A stretch of 64,000 nucleotides of DNA from an uncultured Granulicatella sp. (GTDB lineage: Bacteria; Bacillota; Bacilli; Lactobacillales; Aerococcaceae), in assembly GCA_963515985.1 (NCBI GenBank), contig CAUQAL010000001.1, forward strand, positions 2,357 to 66,356, written 5' to 3'. Both the position numbers and the translations under genes were made by a program. How positions within the stretch are numbered: the stretch's first letter is position 1; the number at the start of each line of letters is the position of its first letter. Of the stretch, positions 13,738 to 63,531 are shown in pieces. The notes under the pieces were generated by a model. That model worked only from the letters and a program-made list of their open reading frames with translations. It ran no database searches and was not told where the DNA came from.

Positions 13738-13884
13738 ATAGACTTCTTGGGTACAGTAGTATTTGGACGCCAGTAGCCACCTTTGGTGTCTCTTGGCTAA
13801 AAATCAAGCCTATAGTCTTGATTTTTCCAGTAATAGAATCTGCTTCTGCAGATTCTATTACTCATACTACTGTAAGAAGTCTAT
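13738..13884 (-). repeat. Modular multi-hairpin intergenic element, copy A
   Basis: Reverse complement: ATAGACTTCTTACAGTAGTAT-GA-[GTAATAGAATCTGC agaa GCAGATTCTATTAC]-TGG-[AAAAATCAAG actatagg CTTGATTTTT]-AGCC-AAGAGA-[CACC aaa GGTG]-GCTACT-GGC-GTCC-AA-ATACTACTGT-accc-AAGAAGTCTAT. Confidence 0.85.
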
Positions 13885-14067
13885 GGAGGGAACATTCATT
13901 TACTCTTTTTCGCAATTGATTGTATTTCTTTTCTTGTCTGAAATTCTTATATTTAATTCGTTAGCAACGGACTCTAGCTAAACGAAGTCTATGATAAAGG
14001 TTATCTTTTGCTCTTTTTCCCTATTCAAATTTTTTTATTCCTACTTTATTTAGCGTACTAAATAAGG

Positions 14068-14094
14068 TATAATATTCACAAGAAAGCGTTATCA
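14068..14094 (+). promoter_or_regulatory. Putative -10 box followed by a cre (CcpA) site-like sequence
   Basis: TATAAT at 14068-14073; AGAAAGCGTTATCA at 14081-14094 resembles TGWAARCGYTWNCA. Confidence 0.55.
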
Positions 14095-14125
14095 AATTTT
14101 AATTTAATAAATTGGAGGTTTTATT

Positions 14126-14182
14126 ATGATAGTTATAGATCCTCAAAGGTATAAAAATGGAGATACTTTTTATAAATTTTAA
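14126..14182 (+). CDS. Putative 18-aa small peptide MIVIDPQRYKNGDTFYKF
   Basis: GGAGG RBS 7 nt before ATG, downstream of a TATAAT box; below the ORF-track length cutoff. Confidence 0.4.
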   Translation: MIVIDPQRYKNGDTFYKF

Positions 14183-14251
14183 TCAAAAATTCTATTCGAT
14201 CAACTGTTTAAAATCATTATGGAAAGCTTTTTCTATAAAGGAGGAATTTAT

Positions 14252-14350
14252 ATGTCAGGTGTTTTAATTGTTACAGTAGTATTTGCGTTAATTGTTATTG
14301 GATTGATTATGAATTTCAAAAAGATAGTTAGATGGATAAAAAATATTTAA
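14252..14350 (+). CDS. Putative 32-aa single-TM small membrane protein MSGVLIVTVVFALIVIGLIMNFKKIVRWIKNI
   Basis: AAAGGAGG RBS 7 nt before ATG; hydrophobic helix plus basic/Trp tail; followed by a terminator. Confidence 0.65.
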   Translation: MSGVLIVTVVFALIVIGLIMNFKKIVRWIKNI

Positions 14351-14366
14351 TATTTAGTTTCGAAGT

Positions 14367-14412
14367 AAAAAGGTATAAAAGCTTTGCTGTTGCTCTGCTT
14401 TTATACCTTTTT
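14367..14412. terminator. Bidirectional terminator
   Basis: AAAAAGGTATAAAAGC...GCTTTTATACCTTTTT inverted repeat between convergent genes. Confidence 0.75.
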
Positions 14413-14413
14413 C

Positions 14414-14935
14414 TTATACAAATCTTCTATATTTTGATTGGCTCCATTTTACTGAGATCCATCCGCTGAATGTTCCTACGATTACTCCTGCTAGTACATC
14501 TGTTGGGTAATGAACATATAAATACATTCTTGAAAAAGCAATGAGGCTTGCTAAAACGAAAGCCATAATCCAGTACTTTTTCATACGAAGGAAATACAAT
14601 ACACTAACTACTGTAAATGAAATAGCTGTATGCCCTGATGGGAATGAATAATCTAATGGTTTTGAAATTAATAAAGAAACCGCTGAATTAACCTCATACG
14701 GACGTGTTCTAGCCACAATTGGTTTAAGGAGACCATTACACAAAATTGTATTGATTACTACCGCAATAGCTAGCAGAATCCCTAAAGTTCTTGTTTTCTT
14801 ATTCATTAACAAAACTGCAATTATAGCTAGCCAAATGAATCCAACATTTCCTAATGAAGTAATAAAAATCATGATAGAATCTAATGTTGGATTGTGTAAT
14901 TTTTGAAATCCATCAAGAATTTGTAATTCTGTCAT
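14414..14935 (-). CDS. PAP2-family phosphatase (candidate undecaprenyl-PP phosphatase)
   Basis: KPIVARTRP, SFPSGH, SRMYLYVHYPTDV (C1-C3 motifs). Confidence 0.92.
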   Translation of the reverse strand: MTELQILDGFQKLHNPTLDSIMIFITSLGNVGFIWLAIIAVLLMNKKTRTLGILLAIAVVINTILCNGLLKPIVARTRPYEVNSAVSLLISKPLDYSFPSGHTAISFTVVSVLYFLRMKKYWIMAFVLASLIAFSRMYLYVHYPTDVLAGVIVGTFSGWISVKWSQSKYRRFV

Positions 14936-15808
14936 CTATTTAGAATCCTTTTCTTTTAATTTTTGTAATCCTAATACTAATAACAAACCAACTAAAGCTG
15001 CAATTGGTGAAAATGTTGAAAAATTCATAGCTTCTTGTGGAATTTTTAATGTCGTTGGTCCCATTATAATCGCATAAAATGAACCAATCATCATTCCAAT
15101 AATACCATAAATCATTTGACTACGATAATGTTCTAAACAATATTTAATGGCTTTAACTACAAATAAAGCTCCAGCTAACACCCCTAAACCAAAAATAGCT
15201 AAACTTGGAACATATGCTAATTGGAAAGTTAACACTGCTTTTACCGCAAAAACGACTGGAATATAAGCTCCAAAAATTAATAATAAAGTTGAACCAGAAA
15301 TTCCTGGTAAAAACATTGCTGAAATAGCAATCATTCCAATAAAGAATAATTTAATGGAAGCTACAAGAGAAAACTGGCTTAAATCAAAACTGCCTTTACC
15401 TGTACGAGAATTCATCCAAGTAATTCCAGCTACAATCGCTACCCCTAGAAGAATATAAAAAATTCCAATTAATGGTTTTTTCAAAGATTCTTTTTCTTCC
15501 ATCATCATTAAAGGAATGGCTCCTGCAATAAATCCAATAAATAAAGAACTTACTCCATAAATATGTGATTCAAATAATGAAGATAATACTAAAATGGCAC
15601 TGACCATTCCAATACCCCAACCAATTCCTAATTTTACTAAATAAGTAAAAGCTTCTTTCTTCTCCTTTTTACTTCCAAATGCCATATCATGAATAGAACC
15701 AATAAATTGGTCATAAAATCCCATAATAAAAGCTACTGTTCCTCCAGAAACTCCGGGAACACTATCGGCTAATGCCATACAAAAACCATTTAAAATTTGA
15801 CGAAACAT
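14936..15808 (-). CDS. DUF368 membrane protein (undecaprenyl-phosphate translocase family)
   Basis: Duplicated ADSVPGVSGGT and AMFLPGISGS motifs. Confidence 0.92.
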   Translation of the reverse strand: MFRQILNGFCMALADSVPGVSGGTVAFIMGFYDQFIGSIHDMAFGSKKEKKEAFTYLVKLGIGWGIGMVSAILVLSSLFESHIYGVSSLFIGFIAGAIPLMMMEEKESLKKPLIGIFYILLGVAIVAGITWMNSRTGKGSFDLSQFSLVASIKLFFIGMIAISAMFLPGISGSTLLLIFGAYIPVVFAVKAVLTFQLAYVPSLAIFGLGVLAGALFVVKAIKYCLEHYRSQMIYGIIGMMIGSFYAIIMGPTTLKIPQEAMNFSTFSPIAALVGLLLVLGLQKLKEKDSK

Positions 15809-15867
15809 AAGTTTCTCCTTTCATTTATAAATAAAGAGACTAGGCTACTGCCCAGTCTCCATCAATA

Positions 15868-16992: not shown

Positions 16993-17007
16993 CCACTATT
17001 CCTCCAT

Positions 17008-18837: not shown

Positions 18838-18998
18838 AAACTGCCTCCTTTTCCTGAAATATTAAGGAACTTTTCCTTTTACACATAATATCCCTAATGA
18901 TACAGGATATATATTATCATCAATTGAAAATTGTTTCAACTAATTTAGCTTTTCTATTATAAAAAATATCATTTGATTCTAACTGAAATTTAAAATAT

Positions 18999-19041
18999 AA
19001 AAAACTCAAGAATCGCTACTATTTTAACGATTCTTGAGTTT
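18999..19041 (-). terminator. rpsD terminator
   Basis: AAACTCAAGAATCG...CGATTCTTGAGTTT hairpin with a U-tract on the minus strand. Confidence 0.75.
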
Positions 19042-19060
19042 GATAAATCTAGGAATAATC

Positions 19061-19672: not shown

Positions 19673-19689
19673 TGAACATTCCTCCAATA

Positions 19690-19845
19690 ATAAAAAATTT
19701 TTTTTGGAGTAAAATAATTGCGAAACAGTAGATTCGTGCAGTCTCTACTAGGGTTCACCTTTGCAGCCGTGGTTACTACCTTCCTCTTAATGGATAGGAC
19801 TGTTGACGAGCTTCTCTTATTTCTGCTGCATATTTTACACAAAAA
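19690..19845 (-). promoter_or_regulatory. rpsD 5' leader (S4 autoregulatory RNA of Bacilli)
   Basis: About 170-nt GC-richer leader with GCAGC...GGCTGC pairing and GTAA motifs; upstream TTGCAT and TG-A-TACAAT promoter elements. Confidence 0.65.
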
Positions 19846-19882
19846 TTATTGTATCAGATGTTTGAACAAAATGCAAACTATT

Positions 19883-40366: not shown

Positions 40367-43291
40367 TTAGTCATTGAATAATGAACGAATTGTTTTGAAA
40401 ATTTCTTTATTTTGTTCGATTTTTACATCATTTCCAACTACTACAAAGGCATTTTGATCTAATACTTTTTTCATTGTTGGAGCAAATGAACGAACTTTTT
40501 CAGGTGTTACATTTAAAACTTCATCACGAGTTTTTTGAACAAGTTCATTTGATACATGAGTAAAGTAACGAGTAAAGGCAATATTTCCTTTTTGATTTGC
40601 CGATAATGGACGATCAATACTACTAAATGTTCCAATGAGATTTTTCTCAAATTCTTCTTTTGATGGATTGTAATTTTCTAAGTATTGTACTTGACCATCA
40701 TAAGCCTTTAGAGTTTCTACTAAGTTTGGATCACGGTACGACACAGCAGCTACTTCACCTTTCCCACCAATGACACTCATTCCACCGTAAGCTCCACCTT
40801 TTACACGAACGGTATTCCATAAATAATCTAACCCTAAAACTGTTTGTAAGAATGCATTTGATCCTTCAAATGGAACACCTAGTAATGTTTGGTTGTACCC
40901 TTTTGCTACATATTGAATTTCTTGAGCTGTTTTAAATCCTTCATTCAATACTTCAACAGGAGTTGTAAATGATTGTGGTGTCACTACTTCTTTTGATAAG
41001 TGTTGGAAGAATGATTGAGATAAAGCTTTAAATTGTTCAAAATCCTCTTTACTTCCAACAAATGTAGCAGTCACTCCATGAATATTTAAGATTTGACGAA
41101 GTACAGCAATCAATTGTTGACTAAAGCTTTCTTTTCTCTCATCATAATGTTTCACTAAATCAGAAATATAATCATAGTAATCAATACCTTCTAATGCCTG
41201 AGCATATTTTGCACCTTCTGAATAATAAGATTCTAAGCGACGGACTGCAATGGTATGCGAAGCATAATTCATATGCATTTCTAAATTCGCTTTTGTATTT
41301 AATAACAGTTCTTTAATCTTATCATAATCTTCCAAGTTTGAACGTAAGACAATTTCTTCCACCAATTCAATTAATTTTGGTAAATATTGAGATAAGGCTT
41401 TTCCTGAAACTGTGAAGAATGGATAATACACATTTTTCGCAACATCTTCTGTCATGACAAAAGCATTTGTTGAAATTCCACCTGTATAGAAATCCATCTC
41501 TGTATTTAAATCTTCATCAGCAAAATGTTTTGTACTAATTTCACCTAATAATTCAGTGACAAAAGCAGCTACTGGAATTTCTTCAGTTTTAATCCCTCTC
41601 ATATCGAAGAAATATTTCGCATATGAAATCCCTGCTGTGAAGTCTTCATAATGTAAGAAAGTCGGTGTCTCTTTTCCTTCTTCAACTGTTAATGGATATT
41701 GAGTTGCTTTCTTTTGAATATCATCAATGGATAGTGTTGGAATTTTCGCTAAATCTTCTGGTCTATCAGGAGATTCTTGTCTTTCAATTAATTTTTGAGT
41801 TGTTTCTACTAATTGATCTAATTCTTCTTCACTTAGACTTGCTTTGTACTCTGCTAATTTTTTAGCTAATTCTGCTTCTTTTTCTTCTAATAAACCTGGT
41901 TCTGGTTTTAAAGTAATAATAGCAGCATGAGTATTATCTAATAAATATTTTTGAATAATATTTTCAAAATATCCTTCTTCAACTTTAGCTTGAATGGCAT
42001 CTAAATGTTGTTGGTATTCAAATGATACATATGGACTTCCATCATATAACCAACTTGTTAAAGCATTCATTCCATACATAACACCTTTTGGTGTACTACC
42101 TTCCAAAGCAGTTAATTCTTTATAACGAAAAGCTGTTTTATTTAAAGCAGCTTGAATCGCTTTTCTAGAAATTCCTTCTTTCACTAAACGTTGTAATTCC
42201 TGTTGAATAATTTGAACAAATTGTTCTTTTTTATCAGCATCTGTATCTTTTAAAATAACTTCAAATGTTGGAGAATACGTATAAGCAGAATATCCACCCA
42301 TAACATCACTACCAATATTCGCTTTTAATAAAGCTTTCTTCAATGGTGCGGTATTACTACCTAATAGCAATTCATCTAAAATACTTAAAGCAATTCCTTC
42401 TTCTCCATTCGTACTCGTTCCTGTAGCCCAAGCATATTCTAACAATGTTTTGTTCTCAGTTGAGTCGCCTTTAGAAACAGAATACGTACTTGTTAGTTCT
42501 TTAACACTTGTAAATGGTTCTTGTTTGTATCCTACAAATGGAACTTCTTTTGCTTCAAAAGCATCAAAGTATTCTGATAATTGTTCCATTGCTTTTGCTA
42601 AATCTAAATTCCCATATAAAGTTACTCGAGCATTACTTGGATGATAATACGTTTGATGGAAATCAATGAATTTTTCTTGAGTTAGTGTAGGAATTGAAGC
42701 TGGCATTCCTCCAGAAACATGTTTATAAAATGTATCCGGGAATAATGTTGGTTCAACTAGACGGTTTAATTCTGATTCTGGTTGAGAAAATGCTCCCTTC
42801 ATTTCATTATAAACAACGCCTTTATACGTTAATTCATCTTCTTTATTTTCTAAATGATAATGCCATCCTTCTTGCATTAAAATTTGTGGGTTTGATAAAA
42901 GATTTGGATAAAATACTGCATCTAAATAAACGTCCATTAAATTCTCGAAATCCTTTTGGTTTCTTGAAGCTACTGGATACATAGTTTTATCAGAGAATGT
43001 CCATGCGTTTAAAAATGTTTGTAGGGACCCTTTTAATAATTCTACAAATGGTTCTTTTGTTGGGTATTTTTTTGATCCGTTTAATACGGAGTGTTCAATA
43101 ATGTGAGCAATTCCGTTGTCATCATATGGTGGTGTACGGAATGCGATAGAGAATGCTTTGTTGTCATCGTCTGTTTTTAAGTACATAACTTGAGCGCCTG
43201 TTTTGTCATGTTTGTATAAATAGTAATCGCAACGGATATCTGCTAATGGTTTTTGTTCTACGAGTGTAAAACTGTTAAATTCTTTTGTCAT
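40367..43291 (-). CDS. M16C insulinase-family peptidase (presequence protease PreP-like)
   Basis: HIIEHSVL inverted zinc motif, FLNAWT, GVVYNEMKG, RVKGGAYG, SYRDP. Confidence 0.93.
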   Translation of the reverse strand: MTKEFNSFTLVEQKPLADIRCDYYLYKHDKTGAQVMYLKTDDDNKAFSIAFRTPPYDDNGIAHIIEHSVLNGSKKYPTKEPFVELLKGSLQTFLNAWTFSDKTMYPVASRNQKDFENLMDVYLDAVFYPNLLSNPQILMQEGWHYHLENKEDELTYKGVVYNEMKGAFSQPESELNRLVEPTLFPDTFYKHVSGGMPASIPTLTQEKFIDFHQTYYHPSNARVTLYGNLDLAKAMEQLSEYFDAFEAKEVPFVGYKQEPFTSVKELTSTYSVSKGDSTENKTLLEYAWATGTSTNGEEGIALSILDELLLGSNTAPLKKALLKANIGSDVMGGYSAYTYSPTFEVILKDTDADKKEQFVQIIQQELQRLVKEGISRKAIQAALNKTAFRYKELTALEGSTPKGVMYGMNALTSWLYDGSPYVSFEYQQHLDAIQAKVEEGYFENIIQKYLLDNTHAAIITLKPEPGLLEEKEAELAKKLAEYKASLSEEELDQLVETTQKLIERQESPDRPEDLAKIPTLSIDDIQKKATQYPLTVEEGKETPTFLHYEDFTAGISYAKYFFDMRGIKTEEIPVAAFVTELLGEISTKHFADEDLNTEMDFYTGGISTNAFVMTEDVAKNVYYPFFTVSGKALSQYLPKLIELVEEIVLRSNLEDYDKIKELLLNTKANLEMHMNYASHTIAVRRLESYYSEGAKYAQALEGIDYYDYISDLVKHYDERKESFSQQLIAVLRQILNIHGVTATFVGSKEDFEQFKALSQSFFQHLSKEVVTPQSFTTPVEVLNEGFKTAQEIQYVAKGYNQTLLGVPFEGSNAFLQTVLGLDYLWNTVRVKGGAYGGMSVIGGKGEVAAVSYRDPNLVETLKAYDGQVQYLENYNPSKEEFEKNLIGTFSSIDRPLSANQKGNIAFTRYFTHVSNELVQKTRDEVLNVTPEKVRSFAPTMKKVLDQNAFVVVGNDVKIEQNKEIFKTIRSLFND

Positions 43292-43409: not shown

Positions 43410-43580
43410 AATAAAGAATTCAAAAAAGTTTCCTTTTTAGCTTTAGTAATAGAAATGCTTTTCAGCATTTCTATTACAGTGGAAAATTTGAGACCTTAGG
43501 CTCAAATTTTAGCCATGAGATTCGCAAAGCGAAGCTGCTGGCGTCCTAGCTAATTAGGAAACTTTTTTGGATTCTTTATT
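43410..43580 (+). repeat. Modular multi-hairpin intergenic element, copy B
   Basis: AATAAAGAATTCAAAAAAGTTTCCT-tt-TTAGCT-tta-[GTAATAGAAATGCT tttc AGCATTTCTATTAC]-AGTGG-[AAAATTTGAG accttagg CTCAAATTTT]-AGCC-ATGAGA-[TTCGC aaa GCGAA]-GCTGCT-GGC-GTCC-t-AGCTAA-tt-AGGAAACTTTTTTGGATTCTTTATT. Confidence 0.85.
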
Positions 43581-43607: not shown

Positions 43608-44147
43608 TTAATTCTTTTTCACACGATTCGCAATTAATTTAAATAAAGCTGTTGCGAAAATGGCAATAAGAATTGAATTAATCATACTAAAAATCCAACC
43701 ATTAATAAAAACAACTGCCGTAGAAGCTTGATAGAAAAAGACCTCTAACGTCGGTAAAATCAAACCAAAAATAATCACATTCGCAACCACTTGAATCACA
43801 TTAAAACGCAAAGCATCATGACGAGAAAAAGTACCCGCTAAAAACGACTTACGACGAATGCCTAAACCAAAAACATATCCAAGCATCCCTACAGAAATTG
43901 CAATCGCAATCCATTGCTCTGTCGTTCCTAATAACAAATCAATGATAATCGTTGAAACACCAACAACTGCAGCAAATAACGAACCTGCCAAACCAGCCAC
44001 AATCGCTAGTAAAATATAAAAGAAGTTAATCTCCACTCCTTCAAAAATAGGTAATGTAATTCCTACATAGTGATAACTAAGAACTAAAACAATTAATGAA
44101 ACGATATGAAGAAGACCTGTTTTTATGAATTTATTTTCTTTCATCAT
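43608..44147 (-). CDS. ECF transporter S component (UPF0397-like)
   Basis: Small multi-TM protein; FNVIQVVAN...LILPTLEVFFY pattern. Confidence 0.6.
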   Translation of the reverse strand: MMKENKFIKTGLLHIVSLIVLVLSYHYVGITLPIFEGVEINFFYILLAIVAGLAGSLFAAVVGVSTIIIDLLLGTTEQWIAIAISVGMLGYVFGLGIRRKSFLAGTFSRHDALRFNVIQVVANVIIFGLILPTLEVFFYQASTAVVFINGWIFSMINSILIAIFATALFKLIANRVKKN

Positions 44148-52126: not shown

Positions 52127-53020
52127 TTATTTTTTCGCACGAGGGTGCGCTTGTTGATAAATTTCTTTCATTCGTTCATTGGTTAAGTGTGTATAAATTT
52201 GAGTTGTACTAATATCACTATGTCCTAATAATTCTTGTACAATTCTCAAATCAGCCCCTGCTTCTAAAATATGCGTTGCAAAAGAATGACGCAATGTATG
52301 GGGACTTACTTCTTTATGAACGCCTGCTTCTTGTACAATTTTCTTTAAATTTTTCCAAAAACCTTGTCTTGTAAATCCATTTCCACGATGATTTAAAAAT
52401 AAATATTCTACTGGATTTGATTCCCGCTCTAACATCACTCTTGCATAAGTTAAATAATGCTGAACCCAATTAGTGGCTGCTTGTCCAATAGGAATAATTC
52501 TTTGTTTATTTCCTTTACCAATTGTTTGAAGAAATCCTAATTCTAAATGTAAGTCACTTAGTTTTAAAGTAATTAACTCACTAACACGCATCCCCGTTGC
52601 ATAAAGAAGTTCTAACATTGCTTTATCTCTTAACCCTAATACCGTTGAAGTATCACAGGAATTTAATACTTGTGTCACTTCATCAACGGTTAATGCTTTT
52701 GGTAACGTCTTACTCTTTTTAGGAACTTTCAGTGGTTGTACTGGATTTGTTTCCACTAATTGTTCCTGTTGTAAAAATTTAAAGAATTTTTTTAGGCAAC
52801 TAATCATTCTACTGGTAGAACTTGTCGCATAACCATCCTGTTTTAAGTCTTGTAAAAATAATACAATTAGAGAATAATCGACTTCTTTCCAATCTCGAAT
52901 CTGCTGTTCTTTCAAAAATTGGTAAAATTTCATTAAATCTCTTTGATAACTCATTACTGTATTTTGAGATAATCCTTGAATTGCCAATGAATCCACAAAA
53001 TAATCCAAATTACGTTGCAT
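52127..53020 (-). CDS. xerD: Site-specific tyrosine recombinase XerD
   Basis: TGMRVSE, HTLRHSFATH, LGH, TQIY; fur-xerD-deoB-punA synteny as in Bacillus. Confidence 0.93.
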   Translation of the reverse strand: MQRNLDYFVDSLAIQGLSQNTVMSYQRDLMKFYQFLKEQQIRDWKEVDYSLIVLFLQDLKQDGYATSSTSRMISCLKKFFKFLQQEQLVETNPVQPLKVPKKSKTLPKALTVDEVTQVLNSCDTSTVLGLRDKAMLELLYATGMRVSELITLKLSDLHLELGFLQTIGKGNKQRIIPIGQAATNWVQHYLTYARVMLERESNPVEYLFLNHRGNGFTRQGFWKNLKKIVQEAGVHKEVSPHTLRHSFATHILEAGADLRIVQELLGHSDISTTQIYTHLTNERMKEIYQQAHPRAKK

Positions 53021-53462
53021 GAGTTTCACCTTCTCTACATTTTTGACAAATGCCATGGAAAGTTAAACGATGATCTTCCACTTTGAAATGAAATCTTTCT
53101 TCAACTACTTTTTCTACTTCACCTAATAAATTTTCATGAATTTCTTCAATATTCCCACATTTATTACATAGTAAGTGATGGTGGAAACGATTGGATTCAT
53201 CTCGTTTTAAATCATAACGAGCTAATCCATCATCGAACACAACTCGATAAGTAATATTTAAATCTGTTAATATTTCTAAAGTTCGATAGACTGTTGCTAA
53301 TCCAATATCAGGATATTTCCGCTTAACAAGCATATATATAGCTTCAGCACTCAGATGGTCATCTTCTTTTTCTAATAAAATTGCAACTGTTGCTTGTCTT
53401 TGAGGAGTTAACTTAAATCCCTCTTCCTGCAATTTCTTTTTGATGCCTTCCATTGTTAACAC
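53010..53462 (-). CDS. fur: Ferric uptake regulator
   Basis: KLTPQR, HLSAE, GLATVYRTL, HHHLLC..C, HGICQKC; exact start uncertain (GTG 53462 or ATG 53453). Confidence 0.92.
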   Translation of the reverse strand: MLTMEGIKKKLQEEGFKLTPQRQATVAILLEKEDDHLSAEAIYMLVKRKYPDIGLATVYRTLEILTDLNITYRVVFDDGLARYDLKRDESNRFHHHLLCNKCGNIEEIHENLLGEVEKVVEERFHFKVEDHRLTFHGICQKCREGETHAT

Positions 53463-53486
53463 AGTCCTATCCCTCCATTTCAATCC

Positions 53487-54350
53487 TTATTTTTCTTCTA
53501 CTAATTGAATAAATCCTTCTGATTGTGTAATTTTTTTTGCTTTTAATAAGGAACCAATTGCACGTTTGAATTGTCCCTTACTAATTCCAAAAATTTCTTT
53601 AATAATCGTCGGATCTGTTTTATCCCAATACGGTAATGTATGCGTTGGACGATTTCTTAACATTGTTAAAATCATTTCTGCATCATCCCCAATTGCTTCA
53701 AATGCTCTTGGTCTCATGGATACATTTAATACACCATCTGGACGAACACCAATCACTCGTACATTGACTAATTCACCAAGTGTTGGTTCATATAATCGTT
53801 CACTTGGATGTAAGAAGCATCGATACCCTTCTTCTGTTATTAAAAATGTTCCTACTAATTTTACATTGGTTACAGTAGCAGATACATCTTTATTTTTTAA
53901 TGTATGATTGGCTCTAATGGATTTTGCTTTTAACTCTGTTCCATCTCCCATAGTTGCCCAAGTACGATTTTTCTTATCTTTAATTAAAGTTACATATAAT
54001 CGATTATTTTTCTTCGGCCATAATTCTTTTAAGTTTGGTAATTCATCTAATGAAACAACCATATCTTTATCCGGTAGTCCAATCGATACGAATACGCCTA
54101 AATCTTTTCTCACTTGAGTAACTGTTGCCCATCCATAAGTTTCATTGGTTACTTCTGGAATATCAAGGGTCATGATTTTCTTACGATCACTATTTTCATA
54201 TACAAAGCCTGTTACGACATCTCCGATGGCTAATATTACATCGGGATTTTTTGAAACACGATACGTTTCACCTTGTTTTTGAACAAAGTACGCTTTATCA
54301 TTTTCATCCGTCACAATAGCTTGAATAATAGTGGATAAATCATTTGTCAT
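53487..54350 (-). CDS. cvfB: S1 RNA-binding protein CvfB/YitL
   Basis: Tandem S1 domains and a C-terminal winged helix (FGISKGQFKRAIG). Confidence 0.9.
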   Translation of the reverse strand: MTNDLSTIIQAIVTDENDKAYFVQKQGETYRVSKNPDVILAIGDVVTGFVYENSDRKKIMTLDIPEVTNETYGWATVTQVRKDLGVFVSIGLPDKDMVVSLDELPNLKELWPKKNNRLYVTLIKDKKNRTWATMGDGTELKAKSIRANHTLKNKDVSATVTNVKLVGTFLITEEGYRCFLHPSERLYEPTLGELVNVRVIGVRPDGVLNVSMRPRAFEAIGDDAEMILTMLRNRPTHTLPYWDKTDPTIIKEIFGISKGQFKRAIGSLLKAKKITQSEGFIQLVEEK

Positions 54351-54413
54351 CGCTTTCCCTCCTTTACTTATTTAGCATTCCTATTCTAACACAGAAATCA
54401 TAAAAGCGAAAAC

Positions 54414-54442
54414 AAAAAAACGAGACAGCTGTCTCGTTTTTT
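54414..54442. terminator. Terminator downstream of the choline locus
   Basis: AAAAAAACGAGACA-gc-TGTCTCGTTTTTT. Confidence 0.75.
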
Positions 54443-54474
54443 AACGTCTAATATTTAAAATGTATGCAACAGAA

Positions 54475-54569
54475 TAGACTTCCTAATAGTAGTATGGGTA
54501 ATATAAGCCGAATTTTCGGCTTATATTACAGGTTGACGTCCTAATACTACTATTCCCTTAGGAAGTCTA
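54475..54569 (+). repeat. Modular hairpin element, copy C (short variant lacking the two inner hairpins)
   Basis: TAGACTTCCT-AATAGTAGTAT-gg-[GTAATATAAGCCGA attt TCGGCTTATATTAC]-AGG-TTGAC-GTCC-ta-ATACTACTATT-ccctt-AGGAAGTCTA. Confidence 0.8.
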
Positions 54570-54574
54570 AAATA

Positions 54575-56089
54575 TTACATCTCTTTTTCGTAAGCTTTCA
54601 AATCTTTTAAGAAACTTGCCACAATCAAAATAATAATTAATCCAATTGGGAATGCTGCAATAATCGCAACAGATTGTAAATTATACATTGAATTTTCTGA
54701 GAAAATTAATGCAATCGGTAAAATAATAAACACTACTGCCCAGAACATACGAACACGTTTATCAGAATCATGCGTATCTTCTAATGTCTTATAAGAATAA
54801 GCAGAAATCACTAAAGTTAACGCATCAAATGTTGTCGCATAAAAGGCAACCATTGTCACAGCTAATAAAATTAACCCTAATTGACTTAAAGGCATTGTAT
54901 CAAAAATTTTCAAAATAATTCCTGCATAATCTGGATTATCTGTTACTAATCCACTAGAAATATCTAAACCATGTTTTAATTGTTGTGCTAAACCATAGTT
55001 TCCTAAAATAATAAATGAAGTAAATGTTCCAGCAATTCCCCAAGAATAAGCCCCTAAAATAGTTTGCTTAATCGTACGTCCTTTACTAATGCTACCAATA
55101 AAGAATGGAGTTGCTACACACCAAACCATCCAATAAGCCCAGTAATAAATTGTCCATTTTTGAGGAAACGATGTTTCACGCAATGGATCTAACCAAGTTG
55201 ATAACCCAATAAAGTTTTGCGCTAAATTCCCAATAGAGCTAAACCCAGTTTCTAAAATATATACTGTTTCTCCACCAGCAAATAAGAAATAAGCTAATAG
55301 AGCAAAGAATAAATATGAACAGTAAGTTGCTAATTTAGAAACAGCTTCCATTCCTAATAACACTGTCGAAGTGTAAACTAAAGCAATTAATAATAAAATA
55401 ACAATTGTTGCACCAGTTGAGTTTTCAAATCCAAAAACATGACCCATTGCTGCTGATAATAAAGGAGTTGCTAATGAAAACGTTGTTGCAGTTCCAGCAA
55501 TTAAGGCAAAAATAGCAATTAAATCAATGACTTTCCCCATCCATCCATCTACTTTATCTTTTAAAATAGGACGACATGCTTCAGAGAATTTTTGTTTTTC
55601 CACTTTACGCACATGTAACATGAAACCAAATGCAACAGCTAACATAATATAAAATCCCCAAGCAATTGGTCCCCAGTGAAATAATGGAAACGTAGGAGCC
55701 CATCTTTGAATGCCACCTAATTGAGCCACATAATCTTCATTTGCATATAGTGCCCACTCACATAAAGAATAGAACAAAATATCCGCAGCCATTGTAGAAG
55801 TAAAAATCATCACTCCCCATTGGAAAGAAGTATATTCAGGCTTTTCTCCTTTTCCTAATACAATAGAACCATATTTTGAAAAGGCTACATACATACTACA
55901 ACTAAAAATTCCCACACCTAAAAGTGCATAATAAATACTAAATTGGTCTCCTAGCCAAGTACGAATCCCGCCTAGAATTAATGATGATTGTTCAGGAATG
56001 ACTAAAAATAGTACTCCTAGTAACAAAACTCCTAACAAAGGTACTATAGTAGATACCCAGTCAATTTCTTGATGTAATCTCTTTTGCAT
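54575..56089 (-). CDS. BCCT-family betaine/choline/carnitine transporter
   Basis: About 12 TM; FHWG...W, WTIYYWAYWMVW, SKGRTI motifs. Confidence 0.9.
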   Translation of the reverse strand: MQKRLHQEIDWVSTIVPLLGVLLLGVLFLVIPEQSSLILGGIRTWLGDQFSIYYALLGVGIFSCSMYVAFSKYGSIVLGKGEKPEYTSFQWGVMIFTSTMAADILFYSLCEWALYANEDYVAQLGGIQRWAPTFPLFHWGPIAWGFYIMLAVAFGFMLHVRKVEKQKFSEACRPILKDKVDGWMGKVIDLIAIFALIAGTATTFSLATPLLSAAMGHVFGFENSTGATIVILLLIALVYTSTVLLGMEAVSKLATYCSYLFFALLAYFLFAGGETVYILETGFSSIGNLAQNFIGLSTWLDPLRETSFPQKWTIYYWAYWMVWCVATPFFIGSISKGRTIKQTILGAYSWGIAGTFTSFIILGNYGLAQQLKHGLDISSGLVTDNPDYAGIILKIFDTMPLSQLGLILLAVTMVAFYATTFDALTLVISAYSYKTLEDTHDSDKRVRMFWAVVFIILPIALIFSENSMYNLQSVAIIAAFPIGLIIILIVASFLKDLKAYEKEM

Positions 56090-56090
56090 G

Positions 56091-56825
56091 TTAAACTTCC
56101 TCACCTTCATCCAAGATACTTTGATAACTTGGATCTAATTCTAATAATTCTTCTAAATTATCGATTTCCACAATATCTGTTTTTTCCATTGGATAAATTC
56201 CTAATTCATATTCATCTGCATGACAAAACATTGCTACATCATCCCAATAAATTTGACGATTTTGTTTCACATCAAATTCTTGTTCTAAATGACGTGCTAA
56301 ACGCTGTCCATCTTCTTTATTCCAACGAGAAATACTATATAATTGCCAGCCTTTTTCTCCACCAGTTCGTGAACATTGAATAACTTTTTCTTGTTCATTG
56401 ACTGTCATTAACCATTCATCGGTATGTCCTTCAGTCCACACACAGTTATAACCTGAGTGAGTAAAGTCAGCATGAAGAATTTCCGGATTATAAATTAATT
56501 GATCGCTATCTAAAATAATGACATCTTCTAAATATTCTCTTGCTACATACAGAGACGAAATATTATTACATGTGTTATAATACGGATTTTCAATAATTTT
56601 TAATCCTGGATATTCTTGTTCTAATGGATAAAATTGTTCTTTTAAATATCCAACTACTACATAAATTTCATGAATACCATTTTTATGTAACGCTTGAATC
56701 ACAGTGTCAATCATACGTACTCCATTGACCTTTACAAGCGGTTTTGGAGTATGATTTGTAATAGGTCTCATTCTTGTTCCTTGACCTGCAGCCATTAAAA
56801 TGGCTCTTTTAATTGTATGTGTCAT
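56091..56825 (-). CDS. licC: CTP:phosphocholine cytidylyltransferase (LicC-like)
   Basis: AILMAAGQGTRMRP, PKPL, NNISSL, DSD, YWD, EID. Confidence 0.85.
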   Translation of the reverse strand: MTHTIKRAILMAAGQGTRMRPITNHTPKPLVKVNGVRMIDTVIQALHKNGIHEIYVVVGYLKEQFYPLEQEYPGLKIIENPYYNTCNNISSLYVAREYLEDVIILDSDQLIYNPEILHADFTHSGYNCVWTEGHTDEWLMTVNEQEKVIQCSRTGGEKGWQLYSISRWNKEDGQRLARHLEQEFDVKQNRQIYWDDVAMFCHADEYELGIYPMEKTDIVEIDNLEELLELDPSYQSILDEGEEV

Positions 56826-56838
56826 CTTTTCCCTCTTT

Positions 56839-58584
56839 TCACAGTTCCTTTAATAAAGATAGTACTAATTTAGAATATTCTTTTGCATAACGGTACTGAC
56901 ATAATGAATATTCTCCAAAATCAATTCCTAAACTTCGCTTATATTCGCACCAATTACTCCATAATAATCCAGCACTTGCAATATACGCATAAATTTTCGT
57001 ACGAATAATTGGAGAAACTTCTCCTTTAAAGTATAAATCAATCAATTGATCCACTTGTTCTTTTGAATATAGAGAATAAATACTAAACATCGCAATATCA
57101 ACATGGGGATCTTGCATTCCCGCATATTCCCAGTCAATAATTCGAATACCATCTTTTGTAAATAAGAAGTTATCTGGAACTGCATCGATATGAACAAGAG
57201 TCTCTTTCTTCTCTAATGTATCAATCCATTTCTTTAATTCAAAAATAGCTGCTTTTGTTTTTTCATAATCTTTAAAATAAGATTTTTCTCCGTTCCATAA
57301 ACTTTCATAAAAATCAATTTGCCCAAAAATATCAAAATGATGGTCTACTTTTAAATTTAATTCATGAAATTCTCGAAGTTTCGTCATACAAGCTTCTACT
57401 TCATTCCAATTTTCTGCATCACAATTTGTTGCATCTTCTAAATAAGCTGTAATTTTATATCCATTATCCGGGTTCATATATAAAACATCATCACAAATTT
57501 GTCGATTCTCTAATGCTTGATAAACATCTGCTTCTTCTTTTCGATTAATTAAATGATCCGTTCCTTCACCAGGAATTCTCATAATATATTTTTGATTTTG
57601 ACATTCGAATAAAAACGATCGATTCGTCATTCCTTTTTTCAAAACAGTAATATTTTTAATTTCATCAACTTCAACATTAAAACAATCTTGAATAATTGAA
57701 ATTGCATCTGTTTGTAAGTTAGCAGAATTTCCATCTATTTCTCGCAGTTGTTCATATGTGTTAATCTCAATGAATTGTTTTGAATTTACCACTTTAGAAG
57801 GAATGATCCATTTATTTTTATCTTGTAAAGTACATTCCCAAAACTCATGGTCATAGGAAGGCTTTTTGGAAAATTCTTGTAATCTTTCTTGAACAGTTTT
57901 TGCCTCATTTCCAGCTAAATAACAAAGACCAATCATTTGATTTCCTTCATTTTCTTCATCTACCATGACTAATTCTCTTTTACGATTCACACGAACTGTA
58001 CTATCCAATGAAGATTCATCTGTAACCATATACCACGAATACGGTTCAAAATCACTAAATGGATTTTCTTCTGACCAAATATCGCATGGAATAATATACG
58101 TTTGATCTAATGAAGTTTTTATCTTACTTAATGAATGTAAATTATTTTTCACTTGATATTCAGAATTAACCACTAATCGAACATTAAATTCATCGATTAA
58201 ATATTCATATCTTTCCTTCATAAAGCCAACTACTACTTGGATATCTGTAATCCCAACTTCATGAAGATGACGAATCATTCTCTCAATTAATACTTCTCCT
58301 TTAACTTCTAATAATCCTTTTGGAATTTCCGTATTAATTGGAACCATTCGCATTCCAAATCCTGCTGCTAAAATAATTGCTTTCTTTGGTCGATTCTCCA
58401 TAATAAAGTTAACAGCCATTTCACTTAGTTCTCCATTTGCTGTTATCCATTTGTTATCTTGTAATTCTTTTACTACACGATTGACTAATCCTAACGAATA
58501 TCCTGATTGATTTGCGATTTCTCGTTGATTCATCATCGGATTCATTCGAATTGCGTTCAGAATATCCAATTCTTGAACGTTCAT
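56839..58584 (-). CDS. Fusion: MarR-like wHTH + LicC-like NTP transferase + choline kinase (LicA-like)
   Basis: N-terminal NQREIA..SGYSLGLVN HTH; ILAAGFGMRM..PKGL; kinase GMTN, RIPG, HIDAVPDN (Brenner motif), IDWEYAG. Confidence 0.9.
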   Translation of the reverse strand: MNVQELDILNAIRMNPMMNQREIANQSGYSLGLVNRVVKELQDNKWITANGELSEMAVNFIMENRPKKAIILAAGFGMRMVPINTEIPKGLLEVKGEVLIERMIRHLHEVGITDIQVVVGFMKERYEYLIDEFNVRLVVNSEYQVKNNLHSLSKIKTSLDQTYIIPCDIWSEENPFSDFEPYSWYMVTDESSLDSTVRVNRKRELVMVDEENEGNQMIGLCYLAGNEAKTVQERLQEFSKKPSYDHEFWECTLQDKNKWIIPSKVVNSKQFIEINTYEQLREIDGNSANLQTDAISIIQDCFNVEVDEIKNITVLKKGMTNRSFLFECQNQKYIMRIPGEGTDHLINRKEEADVYQALENRQICDDVLYMNPDNGYKITAYLEDATNCDAENWNEVEACMTKLREFHELNLKVDHHFDIFGQIDFYESLWNGEKSYFKDYEKTKAAIFELKKWIDTLEKKETLVHIDAVPDNFLFTKDGIRIIDWEYAGMQDPHVDIAMFSIYSLYSKEQVDQLIDLYFKGEVSPIIRTKIYAYIASAGLLWSNWCEYKRSLGIDFGEYSLCQYRYAKEYSKLVLSLLKEL

Positions 58585-58763
58585 GTAATCACCTCTTTAT
58601 ATTTTTATGAACTAAAATCAGTTTACACCTACTATTTTTAAATAGCAATAGTATTTTTTTAAGAATTGTTAAAAATTCATATAAAAAAACTTTTCAAAAT
58701 AGCTTACTGATCCTCGCTATTTTGAAAAGTCATCTATAAACTTACTTTTAATATATATGGCAA

Positions 58764-59018
58764 TTAATACATGGAAATCACTTTAATTCTTTTCCAGCAT
58801 TTGCAAATTGGTACACCGATTACTTCTGATTCAATTAATTCAATAATGGATTCAAAAATAAATTCTTTTTTCTTCTTAATATTATTTAACAGAAATGAAT
58901 TTTCATTTCGATAACTTAAATATTTTTGTTCACCAATTTCAAATTCAATTCGATGCCCTTTTTCTAACATATCTATAAACAAATTCAATGATTTTAATTG
59001 ACGATTCATTGCATACAT
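58764..59018 (-). CDS. Small hypothetical protein, possible orphan toxin-immunity protein
   Basis: AGGTGA RBS; G.RIEFE...KY...FESI.ELI...I...W..I.VISMY pattern; downstream hairpin at about 58689-58730. Confidence 0.5.
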   Translation of the reverse strand: MYAMNRQLKSLNLFIDMLEKGHRIEFEIGEQKYLSYRNENSFLLNNIKKKKEFIFESIIELIESEVIGVPICKCWKRIKVISMY

Positions 59019-59236
59019 TGCTATCACCTATACCATTAGATTTGTGAAGGTTAAACTGTCACTTCATCATTCCATATTCAGTCTGTCTTATCAGTCCATT
59101 AAAATAATCCTTTTTTAAATTTATCCCCCTCCCCTATATTTTACGTATTTGTTCCGTGAATTAGAAACAAGCTTATTTTCGTAAAACCAAAAAGCTTTTA
59201 AATCAATGTTTTCACACTCGTAAAAACGTATAAAAA

Positions 59237-59310
59237 CGGTGCTAGAGGGATTTGAACCCCCGACCTAACGTTTAGGAAACGTTTGCTCTATCCTACTGAG
59301 CTATAGCACC
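59237..59310 (-). tRNA. tRNA-Arg(CCT)
   Basis: GGTGCTA acceptor stem, D arm GCTCAGTAGGATAGAGC, anticodon arm AACGT-TT-CCT-AA-ACGTT, T arm GGGGG-TTCAAAT-CCCTC; CCA not encoded. Confidence 0.95.
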
Positions 59311-59376
59311 CCTCGAATGTATTCTGTCATAAAACAGCTTCAATGTCTAGTAGTACAGATATATTTTTATCATATT

Positions 59377-60726
59377 TCAATCTGTTTTTTTCCGATTTAT
59401 ACTTTTTTCTTTTCTTCTCTTTTTAGCTCGATGTTCTCCGATTAAAACTAATAACAATAACAGTGATCCACCAATAATTACCGCAAAAGCAAAAGCGTTT
59501 TGAATAATATACACTTGAAGCGTTTGCTGTCTTTTCTCAGGTTCTTTTGGTAAATCAGCAAAACCACTTTCTGCTACAACCTCTACACTCGGAAATGTTT
59601 GATTTTCTTTTAGGAACTCCCCTTTTAAAGTAAGATTTATTTTTTTATTTTCTACTTTCCATTCTGGCGTTTTACCCTTTTCAATAATCATCTCAAGAGA
59701 TTGATTCGTTGTAATTTTATGGCCATCAAAATCATGTTCTCCTGCTGGTAAAATTGTTTGATAGGAAAAATGTTCTAATACATATTTTAAAATCGCATTT
59801 CCAAATGTATGGCGAATAAATTCTCCATCTTGGTTTGACCAATTCCCAACTCCAAGAACCACTTCCACTAGTTTCATCTTATCTTTTTCATAAGTAGCAA
59901 TATAGTTAAAAGCACCATAACCACTTGATCCTGTCTTTAGTCCATTTACTCCTTCCAATCCATATTTAGCACCTGGAACTGAATAATTATAAGTATCAAA
60001 TTTTTCTTCATATGGAGTCCCTTCCATCGTTTTAACAACAGCTGAATTGGTATAGTGTAAAACCTGTGGATATCGATTCATTAAATCCATCGCTAATATC
60101 GCTAAATCTCGAGCAGTTGTTTGATTTGGCTTTGAAGCATCATATCCTTCTGGTTGATAATAGCCTTGGAATAACTCTGCTACAGCACCTGAAGCATTAT
60201 TAAACTGTGTGTGGTTCATGCCTAATTCTTTTGCTTTTGCATTCATTTTTTCAATAAATTTTGCAGAATCATTCGTAATCGCATTAGCTAACATGAGTGT
60301 TGCAGCATTTGAAGAAGGAACAAGTGTCATTTTAATTAATTCTTCAATTGGGTATTCTACCCCTTCTACAATTTTATTATTACTAATCGCATAAATATTT
60401 GAAATAGCTTGATCCTCTTTTGTTGCAGTCACTTTCTGAGTGAGAGATAAATCTCCTTTCTCGATAGTTTCCATCACTAAATATACTGTCATTACTTTAC
60501 TGATACTAGCAGGATCACGCTGTTCATCAATATGATCTTGCCATAAAATTCTACCGGTATACGCATCTACTACAATAGATGCTTTTGGTTTATCTTCTGG
60601 ATTCACTTCATAACCAGCACCTTTTGTTAATTCAACAATATCTACTGTTTCTGCAGCAATTTGTTTCATCATTCCCATGAAACAAAATAAAAATATAATT
60701 CCCAAAAATTTTGAAAAATTTCTCAA
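59377..60726 (-). CDS. D-alanyl-D-alanine carboxypeptidase (peptidase S11, low-MW PBP) with C-terminal TM anchor
   Basis: SISK (SxxK), SSN (SxN), KTG; signal peptide; TTG start. Confidence 0.92.
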   Translation of the reverse strand: MRNFSKFLGIIFLFCFMGMMKQIAAETVDIVELTKGAGYEVNPEDKPKASIVVDAYTGRILWQDHIDEQRDPASISKVMTVYLVMETIEKGDLSLTQKVTATKEDQAISNIYAISNNKIVEGVEYPIEELIKMTLVPSSNAATLMLANAITNDSAKFIEKMNAKAKELGMNHTQFNNASGAVAELFQGYYQPEGYDASKPNQTTARDLAILAMDLMNRYPQVLHYTNSAVVKTMEGTPYEEKFDTYNYSVPGAKYGLEGVNGLKTGSSGYGAFNYIATYEKDKMKLVEVVLGVGNWSNQDGEFIRHTFGNAILKYVLEHFSYQTILPAGEHDFDGHKITTNQSLEMIIEKGKTPEWKVENKKINLTLKGEFLKENQTFPSVEVVAESGFADLPKEPEKRQQTLQVYIIQNAFAFAVIIGGSLLLLLVLIGEHRAKKRRKEKSINRKKTD

Positions 60727-60846
60727 GTATCTCTCACCTTTTCTCTAATATTCTAAATTAATTATAACATATTTCGATAAACAGTTCACATTTTACTCAA
60801 ACAAAAAACTGTAAGAGTTTATTCTCTTACAGTTCACAAAGATTTC

Positions 60847-61326
60847 TTATACAGATTCAATTTTTGTAATTTTAACTTTCATATCTCCACCAGGAGTCTG
60901 GATGACAACTTCGTCATTTAATTTCTTACCAAGAATTCCTTTTGCAATTGGAGAATCATTTGAAATTTTTCCTTCGATAGGATTTGCTTCTGCACTTCCT
61001 ACGATTGTATAAGATTCTTCTTCACCATTTGGTAATTCAATAAAAGTAATTTTACGTCCTAATGAAACGACATCTTTTTCGACATTATTATCATCGATAA
61101 TTTCAGCAAAACGAATCATTTTTTCAAGAGTTGTAATTCTTCCTTCAACAAAGGCTTGTTCATCTTTAGCTGATTCGTACTCTGAATTTTCAGATAAGTC
61201 ACCATAACTACGAGCAATTTTAATACGCTCAACGATTTCTTTACGTTTAACTACTTTTAGTTCTTCCAATTCAGCTTCTAATTTTGCTTTACCTTCAAGT
61301 GTCATTGGATATAATTTCTCAGTCAT
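60847..61326 (-). CDS. greA: Transcription elongation factor GreA
   Basis: [20 protein letters not shown]. Confidence 0.97.
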
Positions 61327-61426
61327 TTGGCTTCTCCCTCTTTTCCATTTTAATGCTTTGACAGTGGTAAAAACATACCATTTTATGAAGAAGAATGCAA
61401 GCATTATTTATAATATTCTAAGAATT

Positions 61427-62056
61427 TTATGCTAAATTACTTAAAATGGAAGCAATTTTTGTTGTCATTAAGTCGATTGCTACTGCATTTGAGCCACCTT
61501 CAGGGATAATAATATCCGCAAATTTCTTTGTTGGTTCAATAAATTGATGATACATTGGTTTTACAACTGTAATATATTGATGAATAATCGAATCAAGTGT
61601 TCTACCACGTTCAACCATATCTCGTTTAATACGTCGAATAATACGAATATCATCATCCGTATCAACATACACTTTAATATCCATTAAATTACGTAAACGT
61701 TCATCTTCTAAAATTAAAATTCCTTCAATTAGAATAACATCTTTTGGTTCTTGATGAATGGTACGATCACTTCTCGTATGATTTTCATAATCATAAACTG
61801 GTTCATCAATCGATTTAAAATTAATTAATTTATTCATATGTTCAATTAATAAATCCGTATCGAATGCAAATGGATGGTCATAGTTTGTTTTTAAACGTTC
61901 TTCAAAAGGCATTTCACTTTGGTCTTTATAATAGAAATCTTGGTCAATTTTAACAATACTTAATTCTGGAAAATGATTCAAAATTTTTCTACTAACGGTA
62001 GTTTTACCACTACCTGAACCACCAGTCACTCCAATAACAATCGGCTTCTTTTTCAT
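61427..62056 (-). CDS. udk: Uridine kinase
   Basis: [24 protein letters not shown]. Confidence 0.96.
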
Positions 62057-62059
62057 AAA

Positions 62060-63202
62060 TTACTCCTTATCAACGTATTTAGCTTTTAATGCTAAGTGTT
62101 CTTCATATGTTTTTGCAAAATAAATTTCTTTTGTTTGAATATCTGCTACGAAGTACTCATAATCTGTTTGAGCTGGATCAATTGCTGCTAAAATCGCTTC
62201 TTCACTTGGACTATTAAACGGTCCAGGACCCATCCCTCTATTTCTATATAAATTATATGGAGAATTTACTTCTAAATCTTTTAATGTAACAACTTCTTTA
62301 TGTTCCCCTAGTGCATAAAGAACCGAAATATCTGTTTGTAACATCATATTTTTTTGTAAACGATTATAGAAAACACTGGCAATTTTTTGACGATCTTCTA
62401 ATTTATACCCTTCTTTTTCAAGTAAAGAAGCCATTGTTAAAATTTCATGAACGTTATAATCACCTTGAGAGATTTTCGCATAATATTTAGATAAAATACT
62501 ATCTGTTTTAGCAACCATTTCTTCAATAATCATTTGTAAAGTTTTTGTTTCATCTGCATCATAAGTAGCAGGATATAAATAACCTTCTAAGAAATAACGA
62601 ACATTTTTCGCTTTTTGAGCATCTTTAAATAATCGAGGGAATTTTTGTATTAACTGATCAATAAAAGCTTGATCTTGGACTTTATTCATAAAATCATCTT
62701 TAGAATATTTCGTTGATTTTTCAATTTCTTCAGCAATTCCAGTTAAAGTTTCACCTTCACGCACGACTACTTTAGCTACATTAGCAGATTTATCTGTACC
62801 ACCATCCGCTAATTGCCCTAGAATTTGATCCAATGTCATTGATGGAGATAATTGGTAAAATCCTGCTTTGAAACCTGCTACATTTTTAAATTTAATATAA
62901 AAATTAAAAATTTTTGCATTGCGAATGAGTTTATTTTCTTCTAATATTTTAGCAATTTGCTTCACAGAAGAGCCTGTTGGAATTTCCACTTCAATGGTTT
63001 GAGTTTGTTTCGTATCGACAGGTTTTAATGAGCTAGACACATAATAATACCCATAAGCTCCACCACCAAGTACAATAATTGTTAATAAAATTACAAAAAA
63101 TCTAACAATATTACGAGTAACTTTCGATTCTTTCTTTCGAATCGCTCTTAATTCATCATTTTCATGAAGAAATCCCTTACTAAAACGATCTCTTTTTGAC
63201 AT
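62060..63202 (-). CDS. mltG: Endolytic transglycosylase MltG (YceG family)
   Basis: N-terminal TM, LEGYLYPATY, ASLLEKE, SPYNLY; AGGAGG RBS. Confidence 0.95.
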   Translation of the reverse strand: MSKRDRFSKGFLHENDELRAIRKKESKVTRNIVRFFVILLTIIVLGGGAYGYYYVSSSLKPVDTKQTQTIEVEIPTGSSVKQIAKILEENKLIRNAKIFNFYIKFKNVAGFKAGFYQLSPSMTLDQILGQLADGGTDKSANVAKVVVREGETLTGIAEEIEKSTKYSKDDFMNKVQDQAFIDQLIQKFPRLFKDAQKAKNVRYFLEGYLYPATYDADETKTLQMIIEEMVAKTDSILSKYYAKISQGDYNVHEILTMASLLEKEGYKLEDRQKIASVFYNRLQKNMMLQTDISVLYALGEHKEVVTLKDLEVNSPYNLYRNRGMGPGPFNSPSEEAILAAIDPAQTDYEYFVADIQTKEIYFAKTYEEHLALKAKYVDKE

Positions 63203-63397
63203 AATCCGCCTCCTTTTAACTTCGTTGTCATTATACATGAATTCCTATAACATTTGAAGACTAGGAGTTATACAATTATGTTACAAATTCTAACAATAAG
63301 ACATCAACAGACGAAATTTAGATATGAAACCAGAGGGCTCTACCCTAGTCAAGTCCAATCATTTAAACGTCCTCTCATATACACACGTCCAGCTAAA

Positions 63398-63531
63398 TGG
63401 ACTTGACGCTGTAGCATTAGTACTAGAAGCCATACCGGCTTCTAGTACAGGAAATTTCGAGACCTTAGGCTCGAAATTTAGGCATGAGACCGAAGGGCTG
63501 CTGCCGTCCTAGGCTACTTCAGTCAAGTCCA
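63398..63531 (+). repeat. Modular multi-hairpin intergenic element, copy D
   Basis: TGGACTTGAC-gct-GTAGC-atta-[GTACTAGAAGCC atacc GGCTTCTAGTAC]-AGG-[AAATTTCGAG accttagg CTCGAAATTT]-AGGC-ATGAGA-[CC gaa GG]-GCTGCT-GCC-GTCC-tag-GCTAC-ttca-GTCAAGTCCA. Confidence 0.85.

Follow-up and report, generated by a model that had tools for sequence, protein, structure and literature searches.

Four intergenic copies of a folded repeat

The 64,000-nucleotide stretch analyzed here (the window) comes from an uncultured Granulicatella sp. (GenBank assembly GCA_963515985.1, contig CAUQAL010000001.1, positions 2,357 to 66,356) and carries four copies of a noncoding repeat, all of them intergenic (Table 1). The repeat unit, or core, is about 140 bases long and comprises an outer stem (P1) and three hairpins (P2, P3, and P4). 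An earlier sequence-only reading of the window described this fold, and the strand on which it did so is called the reader's strand below. That reading assigned all four copies to one architecture, which holds for copies 1, 2, and 4: measured against 200 shuffles, their folds are strongly stabilized (z = -11.3, -7.2, and -8.4, respectively), and they score 123 to 128 bits with a covariance model whose training set included all three, at a pairwise identity of only ~63 to 66%. Copy 3 (41 bits) retains the outer stem, P2, and the junction bases GG and GTCC, but P3 and P4 are missing. Relatives carry full copies (two of six aligned) or partial copies at that site, which marks copy 3 as a deletion derivative. 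The copy 4 site in relatives holds between zero and two full units, plus remnants. The hairpin downstream of copy 4 is kept in relatives and was not called by a terminator scan, and expression reads from four runs over positions 52500 to 64000 included none covering the repeat copies.

Table 1. Repeat copies, remnants, and other features of the window
Feature	Position	Strand	Details
Copy 1, full core	13741-13883	-	P1 outer stem; P2 13830-13861; P3 13799-13826; P4 13769-13798; co-directional with both neighbors, a phosphatase-like gene and an iron ABC permease gene
Copy 2, full core	43424-43568	+	P3 43483-43510; outer stem extending to ~43410-43580; 3' end towards stop of ECF transporter gene (43608-44147, -)
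Lone hairpin 5' of copy 3	54415-54442	+	Likely P3 remnant of a decayed upstream unit, from relatives L167-L169 and L171
Copy 3, internal-deletion derivative without P3 and P4	54476-54565	+	~10 nt to stop of BCCT transporter gene (54575-56110, -)
Decayed 3' half of tandem unit 5' of copy 4	63321-63356	+	P4 remnant and outer-stem arm
Conserved portion of linker	63367-63390	+	Joins tandem units in Granulicatella arrays
Copy 4, full core	63398-63532	+	P3 63452-63479
Host hairpin, not part of repeat	63551-63587	.	Between copy 4 and stop of DUF1292 gene (63598-63894, -)
Insulinase-like (M16-type) peptidase gene	40367-43291	-	974 aa; YfmH and pitrilysin matches weak
BCCT transporter, nucleotidyltransferase, and fused kinase/nucleotidyltransferase genes	54575-58584	-	Resemble a lic-type operon for choline uptake and phosphocholine; putative name
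tRNA gene	59237-59310	-	Sole Rfam match at threshold

The fold consists of the outer stem, a short GG/CC helix, the three hairpins, and fixed junction bases. The short helix, in which the GG before P3 pairs with the final CC, had been overlooked, as had the decayed partial unit and linker 5' of copy 4 (63321 to 63390). In a structure alignment of 47 hand-picked sequences (42 from Granulicatella, including three window copies, and 5 from Streptococcus), the short helix is nearly invariant, and 97.5% of stem cells are paired, versus 27 to 44% in slid controls. The claim that stem sequences differ while pairing is kept was borne out, as both partners vary in 31 of 42 pairs and none of 500 shuffles equals this, in a test where related sequences can beat shuffles. 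The unpaired junction bases are nearly invariant, as proposed: over 135 model-aligned matches, an alignment that is itself fitted to the model, conservation is 94 to 100% at the bulged A in P3, at the TAG junction, and in portions of the inner loop of P4. Two unpaired P4 positions covary (36 T/G, 11 A/A).

At orthologous sites, along 96 tree edges with a flank identity of 94%, 189 changes among 1432 pair comparisons were two-sided and still paired and 37 were one-sided, and distal P4 differed on 72 of the 96 edges. Such two-sided stem changes would arise from exchange of whole hairpins between copies or from template switching, so that covariation here lacks its usual value as a sign of a functional RNA. 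The stems covary strongly, but changes that are mostly two-sided jumps do not prove an RNA function.

Copy number, distribution, and relation to known repeats

The genome from which the window comes (G000; 1.55 Mb, 109 contigs, 84% complete) is rich in this repeat, as had been predicted from the four copies. An nhmmer profile search returned 183 matches, versus 0 in the reversed genome, and 178 non-overlapping matches at 135 loci, 114 of them full length, occupy 18,598 bases, or 1.2% of the genome. Tandem arrays of two to three units occur at 37 loci, with 35 of 43 neighbor pairs in direct orientation. A complete Granulicatella genome (G008) has 104 core matches, 41 of them full length. A P3-P4 pattern was present in 8 of 36 same-genus genomes (4 to 99 matches each) and in 0 of 24 other genomes of the order, and titled records with this pattern were mostly from Granulicatella, including G. 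elegans, plus several from Streptococcus.

With the covariance model, the core was recovered from 139 of 151 Streptococcus genomes. The scan scored at most 21 candidates per genome, so that copy counts are floors; two streptococcal genomes scored more deeply had at least 40 and at least 37 copies. In an even draw across the order, the core was found in 19 of 19 genomes of the streptococcal genus, in 1 of 19 of the window's family (G216), and in none elsewhere. The 26 matches in the G216 genome (L296, L310-L334) represent a variant in which a P3-like hairpin occurs twice; one of its subfamilies has cGNAg mini-hairpins at both ends, and the ends of another resemble a second IS1182 type. In the three-pair junction helix of this variant, 14 copies have GGA/TCC and 8 have GCA/TGC. 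A search of phages and plasmids with one streptococcal copy gave no match, and none of six pattern matches in viral sequences was accepted by the covariance model.

Simple open reading frame (ORF) calls placed 39 of the 135 G000 loci at contig edges, 8 in mixed settings, and 4 in called ORFs, leaving 84 classifiable, and in 71 of these the 3' end of the core faces a stop codon, at a median distance of 21 to 27 nt. At co-directional loci, 48 of 59 cores are antisense to both genes. Streptococcal copies outside MITEs (miniature transposable elements with inverted repeats) comprise 27 sense and 20 antisense copies. Some streptococcal cores lie in sense just before a downstream start (L303, L204, L208, L210, L269, and L273; also L070, L090, L285, L290, and L234), in operons that we take, from protein likeness, to be grpE-dnaK, rmlC-rmlB, groES-groEL, purD-purE, and yqeH-yhbY. 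The core stands just 5' of dnaK in six streptococcal loci, and G008 is without it there; the grpE-dnaK gap of S. mutans has reportedly been studied by Palmer and Burne in 2015. Operon-internal cores possibly reflect co-option by the host, and some copies have likely been co-opted at the RNA level.

The core resembles REP, BIME, and REPIN sequences in its high copy number (>100), its closeness to stop codons, its tandem arrays with linker, and its targeting by an IS110-family element (PMC3733652, for the part considered). It differs from them in being a branched fold of 140 nt rather than a palindrome of 20 to 40 bp, in its mostly direct arrays, and in that no linked RAYT gene was found; GTAG and CGTC, the counterparts of the terminal tags of REPs and REPINs, lie inside the 140-nt fold, and streptococcal copies do not retain GTAG. 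BOX, RUP, SPRITE, and the BOX-type repeats of S. suis are likewise modular, folded, intergenic, under-represented between divergent genes, old, and slow moving, according to the sections consulted of Croucher et al. 2011 (PMC3049150). There, BOX, RUP, and SPRITE are reported almost exclusively from S. pneumoniae and S. mitis and hardly at all from other streptococci, whereas the core is widespread in the genus; the comparison with them covers distribution. The window copies are not members of IS1182-type mobile elements, of REP/RAYT systems, or of the Rfam family SSRC8_2, by the features compared, and the repeat works like a REP/BIME/BOX repeat. The family is undescribed in the literature searched, which lay outside subscription papers and ISfinder and gave no account of the core as a repeat family; the portions available of PMC2267715, PMC3733652, PMC6212727, and PMC9241797 describe none like it. 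It has apparently been missed so far because only the fold is kept and the sequence drifts.

Mobile streptococcal copies and old Granulicatella copies

In one streptococcal genome (G192), the core lies within a 294-bp unit that is 95 to 100% identical at 11 loci selected because their scores were nearly equal (one of the matches being partial), and hairpin targets are duplicated at 4 of the 6 loci displayed. Among 93 streptococcal loci, a non-random sample with orthologues included, 18 cores are flanked by both ends of the IS1182 type, 244 to 290 nt apart (chance rates of the two ends, 0.4% and 2%), and 13 of the 18 have target duplications of at least 12 bp. Flanking direct repeats were found for 19 of 78 streptococcal cores, versus 2 in shuffled pairs. 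One site holds an insertion in L202, none in L461 and L462, and one of opposite orientation in L460; the L202 insertion has a decayed right end and a short duplication. Autonomous IS1182 elements (DUF772 and DDE_Tnp_1_6) have ends that match (e.g., L475, L480, and L481), and hairpins are duplicated there as well. [quoted passage not shown] They share matching terminal inverted repeats, insertion at terminator hairpins, and empty sites with IS1272 of the IS1182 family, which deletes part of the hairpin whereas the core-bearing elements duplicate it (PMC4923244, as far as the part seen goes). The contrast with MITEs drawn by the sequence-only reading therefore fails in part, since the streptococcal core is cargo inside MITEs.

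Other carriers were seen as well. Of 21 copies in G216, 6 have ends resembling the second IS1182 type on their upstream side and 3 on their downstream side. In the genome G218 the core lies 3' of a PF06782 transposase gene in three of four contigs examined, where the noncoding 3' end of the insertion sequence carries it (L289, L306, and L307); we presume this element to be ISLre2-like.

The Granulicatella copies have a different history. The nearest copy at another G000 locus has a median identity of 80%, and an identity of at least 95% was seen for only 4 of 114. Most sites are common to relatives, and the differences concern unit number, deletion, and hairpin content. Of 78 G000 loci compared with G008, 37 were without a usable orthologue, 15 matched a full and 12 a partial copy, and 14 were without a match, mostly with the appearance of decay or deletion; 96 further orthologue comparisons gave 61 full, 17 partial, and 18 no copies. 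The comparison of occupied with empty loci thus yielded empty sites and target duplications in streptococci but no clean empty site in either set of Granulicatella comparisons. The Granulicatella copies are old; staying in place, they gain units by tandem duplication, suffer deletions, and exchange hairpins.

These old copies are themselves targets. A 1.49-kb IS110-family element (PF01548 and PF02371; L159:1470-2960 and L162:1-1490) inserts at the P3 base and repeats a short A run, as seen from the filled site in L159 and the empty one in L016. Its junctions in G000 comprise 11 left ones after P2 and 11 right ones before P3, all 22 in repeat copies, which parallels the targeting of REP sequences by IS621. 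The element is multicopy in G000 and mostly collapsed at contig ends; shared contig ends had been considered as a sign of an IS200 partner, and this candidate was rejected, as the ends belong to IS110 inserted in the repeat. An 8-base target match in the left noncoding end of the element, considered as a bridge-RNA guide, was within chance. In G008, one of the 12 IS1182 copies among those listed replaces P3. This IS1182 element (G008:C1:87035-88895) has amplified recently, the 12 listed copies being ~99.9% identical, and its ends look similar to a repeat common in streptococci, which we take to be SPRITE; this would suggest that SPRITE derived from IS1182.

Probable DNA form, rival explanations, and meaning of the core

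Loop and pair statistics favor the single-stranded-DNA form that the sequence-only reading had offered as one option. Mini-hairpins of the cGNAg type, which are far more stable in DNA than in RNA and occur in phage and plasmid single-strand priming sites (PMC13037366, for the part considered), are more frequent on the reader's strand than on the other in 130 G000 cores (40 versus 8), 58 G008 cores (19 versus 7), 97 streptococcal cores (64 versus 14), and 24 G216 copies (22 versus 1), at a background rate of 0.03 to 0.11 per 140 nt. P4 loops are cGNAg in 21 of 112 G000 and 18 of 45 streptococcal cases and GNRA, an RNA-type loop, in 5 of 112 and 0 of 45, with no UNCG; control hairpins outside the repeat have cGNAg in 0 of 15 triloops and GNRA in 9 of 41 tetraloops. 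G-T pairs are scarce (91 of 5485 cells). They exceed A-C pairs on the reader's strand (55), as an RNA would have it, but 32 of the 91 fall at two positions and the remainder equals A-C (59 versus 54). The DNA-type loops with their strand bias and the scarcity of G-T pairs likely point to single-stranded DNA. Upstream of streptococcal outer stems, cGNAg counts are 24 versus 5 by strand, and a GCGAAGC-type motif lies ~10 to 25 nt 5' of the stem in many cores (L123, L248, L256, L279, and L303).

The explanation that we favor, with a little more confidence than doubt, is that of a REP/BIME/BOX-like noncoding repeat whose core is likely branched single-stranded DNA and which in streptococci is cargo of terminator-inserting IS1182-type MITEs. 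The core would fold as branched single-stranded DNA, the DNA strand and not a transcript being the selected form; IS1182 transposases would carry the streptococcal MITEs into terminator hairpins in trans; and the Granulicatella loci would stem from an old burst of similar hairpin-targeted insertion, with ends that are gone or of another kind. The broader claim of a dispersed, structure-conserved, and probably selfish element is supported.

Several observations weigh against this explanation. The transposition route is shown for streptococci only, and for a minority there under strict criteria; IS1182-type ends are absent from Granulicatella cores (0 of 119 in G000 and 0 of 58 in G008), where direct repeats are at chance level (5 of 73 versus 3 in shuffled sequences). 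The core is absent from all 29 IS1182-type loci scanned, so that the explanation does not account for where the core came from or how it serves the MITE. PF13751, found in 24 of 51 genomes tested and not in G000, has no tie to copy number. Folding of the core as DNA is probable from loop and pair statistics, and the control for strand bias, cGNAg at IS200 left ends, was weak (4 versus 2 in 11). The folded strand is the leading-strand template for 82 of 104 G008 matches, a count confounded with gene direction, so that in G008 it is mostly not the strand exposed at the fork. Finally, one streptococcal copy lies within a detected transcript, which leads to the first alternative.

That the core acts as RNA, in mRNA processing, stability, or termination, as a small RNA, or as a new self-cleaving ribozyme, is in our judgment unlikely, and the ribozyme very much so. 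In its favor is SSRC8 of S. pyogenes, a transcript detected by Northern blotting and mapped by rapid amplification of cDNA ends (Tesorero et al. 2013, PMC3675131), with homology of about its P3+P4 stretch in 13 other streptococci and no homologue listed for S. pneumoniae CGSP14 or S. suis BM407 (Table 4 there; all as given in the sections seen). Positions ~145 to 211 of the corresponding Rfam model (RF02616, SSRC8_2) match P3 and P4 of the core with the same pairing and on the same, reader's strand. Rfam gave nothing at threshold for the repeat: SSRC8_2 matched seven of the eight loci tested and, in G000, 58 places (lowest E, 1.8e-13), with 51 bits at best, versus a threshold of 72, and 0 of 58 above it. 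The match cuts the novelty of the core, but SSRC8 is treated in the available part of PMC3675131 as one small RNA of 281 positions at one locus and not as a repeat family or MITE cargo. The sense copies before dnaK, the conserved junction bases, and the covarying unpaired P4 positions also agree with an RNA. Against it stand the orientation to transcription, mostly antisense in G000 and mixed in streptococci, the rarity of GNRA loops, and the two-sided stem jumps. No ribozyme family matched the window at the Rfam threshold, and the sole ribozyme match of eight loci at E values up to 10 was to RNase MRP (E, 5.1).

A REP-like substrate of a rare or lost HUH nuclease (Y1/RAYT type), which would cut and reinsert folded single-stranded DNA, seems less probable again. 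DNA-type loops, the bulged hairpin tips (two in the G216 variant), tandem arrays with linker and a position after stop codons as in REPs and BIMEs, and the IS110 targeting known also for IS621 in REPs would all suit such an enzyme. The HUH/Y1 partner postulated by the sequence-only reading was, however, searched for and not found: G000, at 84% completeness, had no match to Y1/RAYT (PF01797), TnpB, reverse transcriptase (PF00078, the other gene proposed as linked), or IS1182 transposase, and PF01797 was also unmatched in the complete G008 despite its core matches. Among 53 Y1 loci scanned (23 of 26, plus 30), the core was near one degenerate fragment only, and the presence of Y1 across genomes does not track core copy number. 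Genes next to metagenome and streptococcal loci were compared only with 10 transposases from the analysis. The fragment is a broken IS200-type Y1 gene ~190 bp from a core at a cardiolipin synthase locus (L016:1176-1700, genome G033), and the 16 Y1 loci displayed look like ordinary IS200. Carriage of the core by IS200 and IS1182 loci was rejected, the core not being in those scanned. Doubtful, lastly, is a functionless relic whose pairing is kept by palindrome template switching and gene conversion while it rides with any capturing element: the excess of two-sided changes and the frequent decay and deletion fit it, but self-correction leaves unexplained the unpaired bases invariant across two bacterial families, the strand-biased loops, and the GGA/TCC to GCA/TGC covariation in the junction helix.

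We also consider, at low confidence, that the core is a portable single-stranded-DNA module with its own function, for instance as the recognition site of a nuclease or recombinase specific for its structure, or as a priming signal akin to the single-strand origins of phages and plasmids. If so, it would have been captured independently by two kinds of IS1182-type MITE and by an ISLre2-like insertion sequence, would amplify as free tandem arrays in Granulicatella, would serve as a fixed IS110 target, and would be kept in operons such as grpE-dnaK. The core may account for isolated reports, such as the streptococcal small RNA SSRC8 and regulatory gaps in operons, and covariation that arises at the DNA level is a caution for RNA-motif screens. 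One testable system here joins a hairpin-targeting IS1182, a repeat-targeting IS110, and a structured cargo.

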